From Naegleria gruberi (lineage: Eukaryota), in the NCBI GenBank assembly GCA_000004985.1, contig GG738845.1: a stretch of DNA of 64,000 nucleotides; one strand, written 5' to 3'. Both the position numbers and the translations under genes were made by a program. The notes below the pieces were generated by a model. That model was not told the origin of the DNA. It ran no database searches and saw nothing but the letters and a program-made list of their open reading frames with translations. Positions 1 through 3,165 of this stretch are shown here, piece by piece (the first letter of the stretch is position 1; every line of letters begins with the position of its first letter).

Positions 1-114
1 TTTAACTCTAATGCAAAATGCCTTTTATTAATTATAGTAGTTAAGGATCATAGTGGCTATTTTAAACTGGGACTATTATTTGGAAAGTGGACTATTATTT
101 GGAGTGATAACTCA

Positions 115-1458
115 TTGGTTCTAACTTTACCTCAACAAGGAAATGAAAAACTGCTCTACACAATTGAAGAGATAGTTTCTGAGAAGAGATTAGAGAAAAT
201 CACACGAGCTCTTTGTGAAACTATCTGTAGTTGGAATGGAAGAAAGGTGTACGATTTGAAAAGTTGTAATAGTGGTCATTTCATTCTCTCATTTCTGAAA
301 AAGTCTCTACTCTGGGACACCATTTCGCTTTTACCAAAGAGATATATCATTTCATTTACAAACAACAAAACCGATACATTGAAGGAGTATGAAAATAGAC
401 CCATCCCACAAATAGGCCAATTCTCAATAGGAAGGTCTAACCTTTTCTCAAGAAGCGATTGTCAATACATAGATTCGGAAAGATTGAAGGATATTATAGA
501 AAACGTACAAGAATCGCAATTAATTGAGTGTGATGAGTGTGAATTTCTTTCAGAATTGGATTTCATTAGGGATGACATGTTTTTGATTGGTGAAGGAGGT
601 TTTGGTAAGGTGTTTAAATGTCAAGAAAAAAAAAGAAAAGAGTGGAAGGCTTTAAAAATAGTTGAAAATGATATTGAATACGAATTAAGTGCTGTAAGTG
701 TTTAGAAATTGACTTGTTTCAAAATAGGAAAGTGTAAAAAATTCATTAATATTAGACATGAGAATTTGGCACCCGTTGAAGATTATGGAATGTTGGAAAA
801 TGAGCTTTTCATCCTTATGCCTTTCTATGAAGATGGTGATTTGACCACATTTATTAATGAAAAGGGCCACTCCCTGTCTGATAAGAACATTATTCAAATA
901 TTCCACCAAATAGCAGAATCATTGGCCCACTTGCACAAACTCAAAATTATCCACAGAGATATCAAATTGAAGAATATTTTTGTTTCGAACTATGAAAAGA
1001 TTAGTGGTGATATTCATGTTGTTTTGGGAGATTTTGGATGTTTTCTTGATTTGGAAAGCCAGAATGATAATCAACACTTGTTAGGGTCTGAGAGTTATAG
1101 ACCTCCTGAAAAAGAGCAGACAACTAAGGCCGATGTTTGGAGTCTTGGTGTTTGTATTCTTCAACTAGTGTTAATTCAACAAAAGAGCTCCCTAAATCTC
1201 ACCAGTGAAATTCTCTTTAACCAAGAGGATAAGCAAAAACTTTTCCAATCAATATCTGTAAGTTTTGTAATTTTGAATCAAATAATTTATTCTTCAAAGG
1301 ATTCTGATTTGAAAGATGTTCTCACCAAATGCTTAGACTCAACATTCTCATCTCGCATTGACAGTTATGAACTCTCTAACACTTTGAGAATTCTCACTAA
1401 AGTTTATTCTCCAGCAAAAGCAGGAACACAGAGTTCGTTATCTAAAAACTATTTTTAA
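115..1458 (+). CDS. Ser/Thr protein kinase, 5'-partial. Exons about 115..693 and 733..1458. No in-frame ATG upstream of the kinase domain, so the first exon(s) probably lie outside the window.
   Basis: The two ORFs 115..705 and 709..1458 share a frame and are separated only by TAG at 703-705. Gly-loop GEGGFGKV, VAIK-like ALKIV, HRDIKLKN catalytic loop and DFG are present. A GTAAGT donor at 694 and an AAG acceptor at 731-732 give a 39-nt in-frame intron; an alternative is 698..727 (30 nt). Confidence 0.55.
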
Positions 1459-1540
1459 ATCCTAGTTCATCTTTTTTTCACTTTAAAAAAATACACAATA
1501 TTACTTTTACATTGTACATTACTTTAAATACTTTTTTAAA

Positions 1541-2549
1541 ATGATCAAGACTGTTGCTGTTTTACATCCGGAATTAGTTGATTCCTTGAAAAAGGTTAGA
1601 GAACAAAGAGCCTTCAATGTAGAAGAATGGATCGATAAAAAGACAGATTTATTTAATGATTATATGAAGAGATGTGGTTTGAAGGGTAAGTTTATTGTCG
1701 GTAATCATGGCTGACTTTGTATTTGATAAATTGTACTACACATGATCGGATTGATAAATAGCTTGTCTCGTATCTGTTTCTGGTGGCGTAGACAGTGCTG
1801 TTACATTTGCTTTGGCAGAAAGAGCAATGAGAAAACCAAATTCACCAATTAAACAACTACTTGGTGTTGCTCAACCTATCAAATCAACAGAAAAGATTTG
1901 GAAGAGAGCTCTTGAGCTTGAACAAGCATACGGATCAACAGAAGGTGTTAGAGTTGTCTCAGTTGATCAAAGTGAAATTCACACACAAATTCAAGAAAGA
2001 ACAGAAGAAGCTCTCGGTATTAAGAGTGGAGATTTTGCAAGTGGACAACTCAAATCATATATGAGAACACCTGTTGGTTTCTTTGCTGCTCAATTATTGA
2101 GTCAAGCTGGTTTTCCATGTGTAGTTTTAGGAACTGGTAATTTCGATGAAGATGGTTACTTGTTCTATTTCTGTAAGGCTGGTGATGGTGTTGCTGATGT
2201 TCAATTAATTGCTGATTTGCACAAATCTGAAGTTTTCCAAGTTGGTCATGCTCTTAAAGTTCCACTTTCAATTCTTGAAGCTCCACCAAGTGCTGATTTA
2301 TGGTCTGGTCAAACTGATGAAAATGAATTGGGTTTTCCATATGACTTTGTTGAACTCATGACTGAATTAATGGTAAAGACTGAAGAAGAACAAAAAGCTA
2401 TCAAACAATCATGGAGTCCAGAAGCACTCAATCAATTCGAAGAATTATCTGCTGAAGCCAAACTTGTACATAAGAGAAATAATCACAAGGCCAAGTATCC
2501 ATTGAATCTTAACCTCATTCACCCAGTGGGTGACAATTTTTCTTTCTAA
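1541..2549 (+). CDS. nadE: NH3-dependent NAD+ synthetase, bacterial NadE type. Exons 1541..1685 and 1762..2549, intron 76 nt.
   Basis: N-terminal exon MIKTVAVLHPELVDSL...GLK, then GTAAGT...AAATAG. The second exon begins ACLVSVSGGVDSAV (SGGxDS PP-loop). FCKAGDGVADVQLIADL, APPSADLW and LGFPYD line up with E. coli NadE motifs. There is no N-terminal nitrilase/glutaminase domain. Confidence 0.65.
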
Positions 2550-2682
2550 ATAAACTTTAAAGAATAAACTTTTTTTCTAACCTTTACAGTTTGCCTTTAA
2601 AGTACTGTTTACAATTGTAGTAAACTACTAAACTTGTAATTCAAACAAAACTAAACTTCAAAAAAAACAACTACTACACAAC

Positions 2683-3165
2683 ATGAATGCCACACACCAA
2701 CAAACAATTATACCAACCTCAAAAAGTTTAGTTCAAACTATTGGCAACCAACAAGTAAAAAGTCTATACTTGTATAATTATTCAAATACTGTGTTCCAAA
2801 TAAGTACATTCTACAAGGACATAGAGGGACAAGATTATGAGGAACAGGTTGACGAAGAGTTATTTGTCAAACCATTTGATTGGTATTTTATAAAACCAAA
2901 AACTCATCATAATCGAGAAATGCACATTCTTGGTATTCAGTTACAAGATATCACACACAATGTCAATAGTTGTACTTTTTTACTGAGTGAACTAGTGACA
3001 AATTTGAAACATTATTGGAAGGATGAAATGCTCAATCTTCACGACATCAAGTACTCTATTGATTTCAATAATTATAGGCAAGATTTGAATGAGAATGACA
3101 ATATTTTTGTAATTACTAAACATGTTGGTGAGAATATTAATTTATATTATTATAAAAATAAGTAA
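2683..3165 (+). CDS. Hypothetical protein, 160 aa, single exon.
   Basis: ATG at 2683 in an A-rich context; uninterrupted ORF; no family recognised. Confidence 0.35.
   Translation: MNATHQQTIIPTSKSLVQTIGNQQVKSLYLYNYSNTVFQISTFYKDIEGQDYEEQVDEELFVKPFDWYFIKPKTHHNREMHILGIQLQDITHNVNSCTFLLSELVTNLKHYWKDEMLNLHDIKYSIDFNNYRQDLNENDNIFVITKHVGENINLYYYKNK

Follow-up and report, generated by a model that had tools for sequence, protein, structure and literature searches.

A stand-alone NadE-family gene with a spliceosomal intron in Naegleria gruberi and its relatives in protists, giant viruses and bacteria

The window analyzed here is a stretch of 64,000 nucleotides from contig GG738845.1 of the Naegleria gruberi assembly GCA_000004985.1, which has a GC content of 33.5%, is eukaryotic in character and carries short introns of the form GTAAGT..AG. 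On its plus strand lies a gene that encodes a single-domain protein of the NadE family of nicotinamide adenine dinucleotide (NAD) synthetases, with the ATG start codon at position 1541 and the TAA stop codon at positions 2547-2549. The gene is in frame only once nucleotides 1686-1761 are removed, yielding a spliced coding sequence of 933 nt and a protein of 310 amino acids (aa); the unspliced reading from the ATG at 1541 meets a stop after 57 codons, and in-frame stops are likewise located upstream of this ATG. The gene and its parts are as follows.

1459..1540, plus strand: short, A/T-rich intergenic 5′ region between the stop codon of an upstream kinase gene (1456-1458) and the NadE ATG
1541..1685, plus strand: exon 1, 145 nt, encoding aa 1-48 and the first base of codon 49, with the N-terminal helices (from translation; the orthologue N-termini are homologous)
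1686..1761, plus strand: predicted spliceosomal intron, 76 nt, phase 1, GTAAGT...AAATAG (from restoration of the frame; same position in N. lovaniensis)
1762..2549, plus strand: exon 2, encoding aa 49-310 and the TAA stop, with the PP-loop ATP-pyrophosphatase core and the C-terminal helices (from PF02540, TIGR00552 and Foldseek)
1779..1796, plus strand: PP-loop S55-G-G-V-D-S60, aligned with S48-GGQDS-53 of E. coli NadE and invariant in 15 orthologues
2175..2198, plus strand: K187-AGDGVA-D194, counterpart of the substrate/Mg loop 'TKYGDGGxD' of NadE, aligned with FTKYGDGGTD of E. coli
2280..2300, plus strand: A222-PPSADL-228, counterpart of the 'PTADL' loop of NadE, aligned with APTADL of E. 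coli; the family shows no variation at A222 and P224-S-A-D-L228

The segment 1686-1761 has the GT..AG ends of a spliceosomal intron, its removal restores the frame, and the resulting junction, ..CGLK|ACLVSVSGGVDSAV, agrees with the homologues, the protein being colinear with its orthologues across the splice site. The GC content of the intron is 31.6%. Exon 1 has a counterpart at the N. lovaniensis locus, as indicated by a tblastn match of 2e-17 for aa 1-58. Moreover, two independently assembled metagenome contigs are 99.7% identical to positions 1-3055 of the window, the intron region included. An initial annotation of this locus, made from the nucleotide sequence, had specified the exon and intron coordinates, the GTAAGT..AAATAG borders and the motifs, all of which proved correct upon translation, inspection of the frame and alignment of the orthologues. 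The protein collection does not contain the exact 310-aa product, and only a 240-aa open reading frame (ORF) from exon 2, obtained from metagenome DNA (ERR1078381), matches at 100%. The structure given above is a correct gene model for a locus that is apparently present in this collection only as an exon-2 fragment.

The GC content of the NadE gene is host-like, and its neighbors are ordinary host genes, some of them with introns. Contamination or an assembly artefact was considered and rejected in view of the intron-bearing flanking genes, the conserved intron position and the matching independent contigs; the claim of the initial annotation that the gene is not a contaminant is hence upheld by its neighbors, its host-like GC content and the shared intron. 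The neighbor genes of the window were not found around the orthologues of N. lovaniensis or Willaertia. Taken together, we consider it likely that Naegleria has here a genuine nuclear gene composed of two exons that flank a single phase-1 intron. Its 310-aa product would be a cytosolic stand-alone enzyme of the NadE family, most likely an NAD+ synthetase.

When the 310-aa product was compared with Pfam, NAD_synthase (PF02540) was the only domain detected (1.1e-33, 116.8 bits vs a cutoff of 21, aa 32-287), and no CN_hydrolase domain was found. In addition, the NCBIfam model TIGR00552 (nadE) scored 112.1 bits, above its cutoff of 63.65. The product thus lacks the fused N-terminal CN-hydrolase that marks the two-domain Qns1/NADSYN1 enzymes, and its earlier description as a single-domain NadE of ~310 aa holds. 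A nitrilase exon upstream of the gene was looked for as well, and none was found. Two plus-strand ORFs, 115-705 and 709-1458, give Pkinase matches (2e-31) and contain GTAAGT introns of their own. This kinase gene ends at position 1458, 83 nt before the NadE ATG, which leaves no space in between for an exon encoding a nitrilase. A tblastn search with an approximate human NADSYN1 probe revealed no nitrilase/CN-hydrolase anywhere in the 64-kb window, the sole match being the synthetase domain itself at 1767-2342 (E 0.011). No CN_hydrolase gene was found adjoining the inspected orthologues, and the orthologue gene models and the 'complete' protist transcriptome ORFs are all about 290-320 aa in length. 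The top matches of the protein turned out to be single-domain protist orthologues and not two-domain Qns1 enzymes.

The AlphaFold2 model of the 310-aa protein (predicted local distance difference test score 85.9) comprises helices at aa 10-23 and 27-44 and a strand at aa 49-54. The intron site maps between the helix 27-44 and this strand, directly ahead of the PP-loop, in line with the earlier statement that the intron separates an N-terminal helix from the PP-loop. A Foldseek search of the PDB with this model returned NadE-family synthetases without a glutaminase domain in all of the top 46 positions (E values down to 1.8e-16, template modelling (TM) scores to the target of 0.68-0.89), followed by human NADSYN1 as the 47th match. 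The protein thus has the NadE fold, consisting of a Rossmann-like alpha/beta core and C-terminal helices.

At the residue level, the PP-loop, R150, T173/E178, K187/D190/D194, K203, P224-SADL and H290-K291 align with the motifs of E. coli NadE. The substrate- and Mg-binding roles of these conserved motif residues are presumably those assigned after the B. subtilis and E. coli NadE structures. Within CKAGDGVAD (aa 186-194), K187, G189, D190, G191 and D194 are invariant among 15 family members, and the confidence of the model is low at aa 186-191, fitting a mobile loop. Over these 15 members the mean column identity amounts to 60%, with 81 invariant positions. The family has a conserved extra N-terminal helix motif, R20..F25..W30..K34..N39.Y41, and its specific signatures are GTGNxDEDGYLxYFCKAGDG and ADLHKSEVF. 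Moreover, the Naegleria protein contains a helical insert at about aa 250-268, which is absent from E. coli NadE. Behind the HK motif, the conserved part ends 7-19 residues on, in a tail for which disorder is predicted. An N-terminal extension is absent from the Naegleria protein.

The two-domain glutamine-dependent synthetase has been described as characteristic of all eukaryotes and the single-domain architecture as the prokaryotic norm (PMC3376133), and the NAD+ synthases of eukaryotes, Aureococcus excepted, have been treated as a single monophyletic group of two-domain enzymes (PMC4217691). Qns1/NADSYN1 (6ofb) shares the homologous synthetase-domain fold with the Naegleria protein and would catalyze the same last step of NAD synthesis. 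In contrast to it, the Naegleria protein is devoid of a CN-hydrolase, its identity to the human synthetase domain is ~25% as determined with the approximate probe, and in the tree described below, the subfamily as a whole excludes the human and type-F sequences.

By sequence, the closest solved relatives are the nicotinamide mononucleotide (NMN) synthetase of Francisella (3fiu) and the NadE of Pyrococcus horikoshii (2e18). The short archaeal/thermophile NadE proteins (PRK13980), including P. horikoshii PH0182 (2e18) and the Helicobacter pylori enzyme (1xng), have the same fold (TM 0.80 normalized to the target) and share with the Naegleria protein the SGGxDS PP-loop, the GDG loop, the PSA(G/D)LW loop, the C-terminal HK and a single domain of 250-310 aa without glutaminase. 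However, the identity is only about 26%, the Naegleria protein adds the N-terminal helix motif and the family signatures, and its subfamily is encoded by intron-containing eukaryotic nuclear genes. The Francisella tularensis enzyme NadE* (3fiu) is the best PDB sequence match (6.7e-20; TM 0.89 normalized to the target), but the similarity is centered on the catalytic core at aa 166-246 and the N-terminal region is barely alignable. The NadE enzymes of E. coli and B. subtilis (PRK00768; 1wxe, 1nsy) belong to the same superfamily, with the same predicted chemistry and with catalytic motifs that align, whereas the identity is about 20%, phmmer yields 37 bits, and the E. coli type lacks the insert at aa ~250-268. 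The alignment with E. coli NadE put forward in the initial annotation therefore stands for the motifs and does not extend to the protein as a whole, for which the E. coli-type equivalog NF001979 (PRK00768) gives 80 bits vs a cutoff of 250.

A homologue search yielded 3,157 matches, headed by N. lovaniensis (76%) and Willaertia (67%) and followed by a long series at 54-65% identity. The orthologues at 54-76% comprise Naegleria, Willaertia, Acrasis (with two paralogues), Percolomonas and Pharyngomonas, as well as Planoprotostelium, Pelomyxa, Vannella, Vermistella, Protostelium, Dermamoeba, Luapeleamoeba, Pygsuia and Paratrimastix, and furthermore Blastocystis, Selenidium, Colpodella and Hemimastix. 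The groups covered are Heterolobosea, Amoebozoa, Breviatea, Preaxostyla, Blastocystis, alveolates and Hemimastix. Many of these protist orthologues are 'complete' transcriptome ORFs of ~297 aa, long metagenome contigs with family members carry eukaryotic neighbors, e.g., CDC50, ubiquitin and Arf, and database annotation already names several members 'NAD+ synthase'.

In addition, two relatives are located on dense, intron-free contigs together with an intein-containing RNA polymerase Rpb1 or ribonucleotide reductase, which are viral hallmarks. A scan of IMG/VR revealed eight loci with 45-49% identity over aa 16-298, seven of which are named giant-virus metagenome-assembled genomes (GVMAG). In a fold search of BFVD no NadE of a UniProt-listed or cultured virus was found, only distant PP-loop enzymes. 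Thus, the stand-alone NadE subfamily is strongly conserved and patchily distributed. It occurs in giant viruses and in many phagotrophic or anaerobic protists, which represent six or more major groups of eukaryotes.

Exon 1 of the N. lovaniensis gene (L001 4001-5513) is likewise 145 nt long, and the intron that follows K48 interrupts the same codon in the same phase as in the window, where it is the only intron (after K48, phase 1). The N. lovaniensis gene has three introns, after K48 (phase 1), V68 (phase 0) and A238 (phase 1), and the Willaertia magna gene has none. The three introns of Planoprotostelium and the two of Paratrimastix are all located elsewhere. The K48 intron was therefore acquired within the genus, before the two Naegleria species diverged; the NadE gene itself was probably present already in the heterolobosean ancestor, the intron arriving later, within Naegleria. 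No intron position common to different supergroups was found in the comparison of Naegleria, Planoprotostelium and Paratrimastix, and such non-coinciding introns neither support nor count against an origin in the last eukaryotic common ancestor (LECA). The additional N. lovaniensis introns after V68 and A238 measure 210 and 194 nt and are rich in CA/TA repeats; intron number thus varies within the genus Naegleria.

Prokaryotic relatives were sought in two ways. The genomes of 185,579 prokaryote species were scanned for motifs, an approach that detects only sequences with YFCKAGDG or GTGNxDEDG, and this gave only three loci, with 28-30% identity, and no close prokaryotic copy. The scan was complemented by an exhaustive HMMER search, in which the next relatives after the eukaryote and virus set are bacterial-type proteins with 33-44% identity that fall into three size classes. 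Proteins of about 585 aa combine a NadE-like part with a 2-oxoglutarate/Fe(II) (2OG-Fe(II)) oxygenase; those of about 1,100-1,400 aa add a cytidylyltransferase-like domain, for which the best NCBIfam model is TIGR00482 (nicotinic acid mononucleotide (NaMN) adenylyltransferase), below its cutoff; and those of about 330 aa include a Streptomyces 'NAD(+) synthase'. By context or name, these bacterial-type proteins belong to Alphaproteobacteria, Myxococcales, Obscuribacterales, Chthonomonadales and Peregrinibacteria, as metagenome-assembled genomes. The bacterial fusion proteins named 'NAD(+) synthase' (585 to ~1400 aa; 2OG-Fe(II) oxygenase/PhyH) resemble the Naegleria family in having the N-terminal helix motif as well as the helical region at the C-terminus. 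In contrast to the latter, they are multidomain proteins and contain GTTNxDEGAYLGFFGKASDG and PTGDM in place of GTGNxDEDGYLxYFCKAGDG and PSADL.

A neighbor-joining tree was calculated from 188 sequences and 292 columns with 100 bootstraps. The query groups with N. lovaniensis and Willaertia (bootstrap 83%), and the other heteroloboseans are located near Naegleria but mixed with amoebozoans. The giant viruses form a clade outside the eukaryote core (91%), and the bacterial-type sequences are monophyletic (84%). A clade that holds at least 90% of the core eukaryotes is free of bacterial-type members (93%), and the eukaryote and bacterial-type groups join each other before classical NadE, type-F and human sequences (94%). 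The eukaryotic genes are thus sister to the bacterial group and not nested within it. The tree was obtained by neighbor joining only and is poorly supported inside the eukaryotes, the exact core clade being recovered in 19% of the replicates, which counts against the overall reading of the gene and its subfamily.

As to the reaction, ATP bound at the PP-loop would adenylate the nicotinate carboxylate of deamido-NAD (NaAD), and free ammonia would then displace AMP, giving NAD+, AMP and pyrophosphate, the protein having no glutaminase domain. While the gene structure, domain content, fold, motif conservation, taxonomic distribution and tree topology are shown by the analysis, we infer the reaction, with NaAD as the substrate and ammonia as the nitrogen donor, and the cytosolic location. 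The fusion of relatives to NaMN-adenylyltransferase-like domains, for which TIGR00482 is the best model, provides a Rosetta-stone link to the pathway NaMN -> NaAD -> NAD.

Several results weigh against the assignment as a NAD+ synthetase. Among the two single-domain NadE equivalogs, the better-scoring one, NF010587 (archaeal/short NadE, PRK13980), reached 125.6 bits vs a cutoff of 255, and NF001979 likewise stayed below its cutoff; since both cutoffs are missed, exact functional equivalence is not guaranteed. Moreover, the best PDB sequence match is the Francisella enzyme, which is an NMN rather than a NAD synthetase and also ranks second among the structural matches. A functional shift to NMN synthetase has been described within the NadE homologues (PMC3376133), and the adenylyltransferase-like fusions would fit either order of reactions. 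That the Naegleria enzyme amidates NaMN to NMN in the manner of Francisella NadE is nevertheless unlikely, as the match to 3fiu is strong only over the generic catalytic core (aa 166-246), P. horikoshii NadE gives an equally good match that spans the full length, and the fused domains fit best to the NadD-type model TIGR00482 (below cutoff), that is, to the classical order NaMN -> NaAD -> NAD.

The helical insert raises a different objection, namely that the protein could be one of two subunits of a glutamine-dependent enzyme, supplying the synthetase, with a separately encoded nitrilase-like protein as the glutaminase. An extra helical insert is found in branches that include two-subunit glutamine-using enzymes (PMC3376133), and the Naegleria family carries this insert. 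De Ingeniis et al. (2012) reported that the two-subunit glutamine-using NAD synthetases are marked by an alpha-18 contact helix and an extended C-terminal loop (PMC3376133); the insert at aa ~250-268 sits where they place the contact helix, and the protein has an affinity to the short archaeal/thermophile NadE proteins, a group that contains two-subunit enzymes. However, the extended C-terminal loop (PMC3376133) appears to be absent, the tail of 7-19 residues being predicted disordered, and no CN_hydrolase gene was found in the window or beside the orthologues inspected. Both signatures were read from the position of the insert and the length of the tail. We rate this arrangement as quite improbable and a stand-alone NAD+ synthetase that uses ammonia as the likely reading.

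Concerning the origin of the gene, the initial annotation took the combination of a bacterial-type single-domain NadE and an intron as the signature of an ancient or lineage-specific horizontal acquisition, later domesticated. If the Naegleria lineage or a recent ancestor had acquired a bacterial nadE horizontally and domesticated it via intron gain, this would agree with the single domain being the prokaryotic norm (PMC3376133), with the intron being present in Naegleria only and absent from Willaertia, hence gained after the arrival of the gene, and with the bacterial nature of the nearest relatives outside eukaryotes and viruses. However, orthologues with 54-67% identity occur throughout Heterolobosea and in at least five other supergroup-level lineages, some with introns of their own, as well as in giant-virus metagenome-assembled genomes, which contradicts a lineage-specific acquisition. 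Likewise, the scan of the 185,579 genomes gave only the three loci at 28-30%, and the best bacterial sequences, at 33-44% identity and mostly multidomain, constitute a separate clade (84%) that does not include the eukaryotes; the nesting in a bacterial donor clade that a horizontal transfer usually produces is replaced by a sister relationship. We therefore judge a bacterial import of this kind to be very unlikely. An ancient acquisition is possible, but it is indistinguishable from a gene that early eukaryotes already had and that was later lost, and also from eukaryote- or virus-mediated spread.

The spread of the subfamily by eukaryote-to-eukaryote or giant-virus transfer, with the Naegleria copy stemming from a transfer into an ancestral heterolobosean, is a serious possibility, if less than probable. 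The subfamily is distributed patchily, with phagotrophic amoebae and anaerobes overrepresented, the giant-virus copies at 45-49% identity form a clade (91%) beside the eukaryote core, heteroloboseans and amoebozoans are intermixed in the tree, and the supergroups have no intron position in common. On the other hand, Naegleria, Willaertia, Pharyngomonas and Acrasis are placed near each other, which fits a vertical inheritance of the gene among heteroloboseans, the viral sequences branch as a clade outside the eukaryote core instead of being interleaved with it, the Naegleria gene with its host-like GC content resides among ordinary host genes, and no cultured or UniProt-listed virus protein was matched in BFVD. 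The resolution of the neighbor-joining tree is too low to decide the matter. A further reading, possible but less than probable, is that early eukaryotes, possibly LECA, had a second, stand-alone ammonia-dependent NAD synthetase beside Qns1, which was kept in many free-living or anaerobic protists, lost in animals, fungi and plants, and captured by giant viruses.

The gene is a member of a known enzyme family, and its orthologues are already present in databases, whereas the wider pattern is apparently unreported. In the literature on NAD synthetase and NadE in Naegleria, protists and giant viruses we found no description of this single-domain eukaryote and giant-virus clade, and an apparent match, Alsmark 2013, does not contain the term. 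A second, one-domain form of NAD synthetase is encoded in many protist nuclear genomes and in giant viruses, and the rule that eukaryotes have only the two-domain form does not cover it. Among its carriers are the genus to which the brain-eating N. fowleri belongs and Blastocystis, a parasite of the gut. Should the enzyme have been present in early eukaryotes, the view of eukaryotic NAD synthesis as exclusively two-domain and glutamine-dependent would be overturned, and it might be the only NAD synthetase in some protists. If the enzyme is active and its host lacks Qns1 or depends less on it, NAD synthesis would be tied to free ammonia instead of glutamine, parasites would offer a target without a human counterpart, and the subfamily would provide a clean test case for distinguishing ancient eukaryotic genes from virus-mediated spread.

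Some members of the subfamily differ from the Naegleria protein in length. N-terminal extensions of 20-80 aa are present in P0089, the second paralogue of Acrasis kona, and in P0121 and P0130. The Acrasis kona paralogue starts with MIRVVRPIILRPLTKRLYSTPKK, which resembles a mitochondrial presequence, and to judge from this N-terminus, some protists may target one copy to an organelle. Furthermore, P0125 (633 aa) as well as P0153, P0163, P0229 and P0260 (about 555 aa) are relatives with approximately twice the single-domain length. P0125 and P0153 contain two NAD_synthase stretches according to Pfam, and in the proteins of about 555 aa the best match lies in the C-terminal half. In composition and motifs, these double-length relatives resemble the eukaryote/virus group.

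The large bacterial fusion family comprises P0129, P0133, P0135/P0273 (L010 8001-11606), P0146 and about 80 more representatives, which often carry, in addition, a domain resembling NaMN adenylyltransferase and one more stretch of about 300 aa. The gene that follows P0133 (576 aa) overlaps its stop codon, an arrangement that suggests a putative split version of the long fusion. A bacterial-type fusion of a NadE-like and an NaMN-adenylyltransferase-like part is also encoded on a eukaryotic metagenome contig (P0154, 1375 aa; L011 8001-12128 / L012 7534-11661), where E2F, Rad21 and BEACH-domain genes are its neighbors, and this fused form may have entered a eukaryote in a transfer of its own. The NadE of a Candidatus Uhrbacteria genome of the candidate phyla radiation (L003 4001-4831) contains the eukaryote-type motifs GTGNRDEDG, ADLHKSEV and KPSADLWGG, but has an overall identity of only 30%, and branches just outside the whole subfamily.

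On two of the giant-virus contigs (L020 6007-8041 and L023 5968-8019), the NadE-like gene is directly followed by a gene for a NAD-dependent UDP-glucose/GDP-mannose dehydrogenase, and GDP-mannose dehydratase as well as glycosyltransferase or other glycan-synthesis genes are located around this pair. The conserved NadE-dehydrogenase pairing suggests that the virus could top up NAD for glycan synthesis.

Upstream of the NadE gene, positions 1-1458 of the window (plus strand) represent the 3′ part of the protein-kinase gene, which contains at least two short GTAAGT..AG introns at about 694-726 and 1258-1300. The spacing of 83 nt between the kinase and the NadE gene shows the tight packing of genes in the Naegleria genome.

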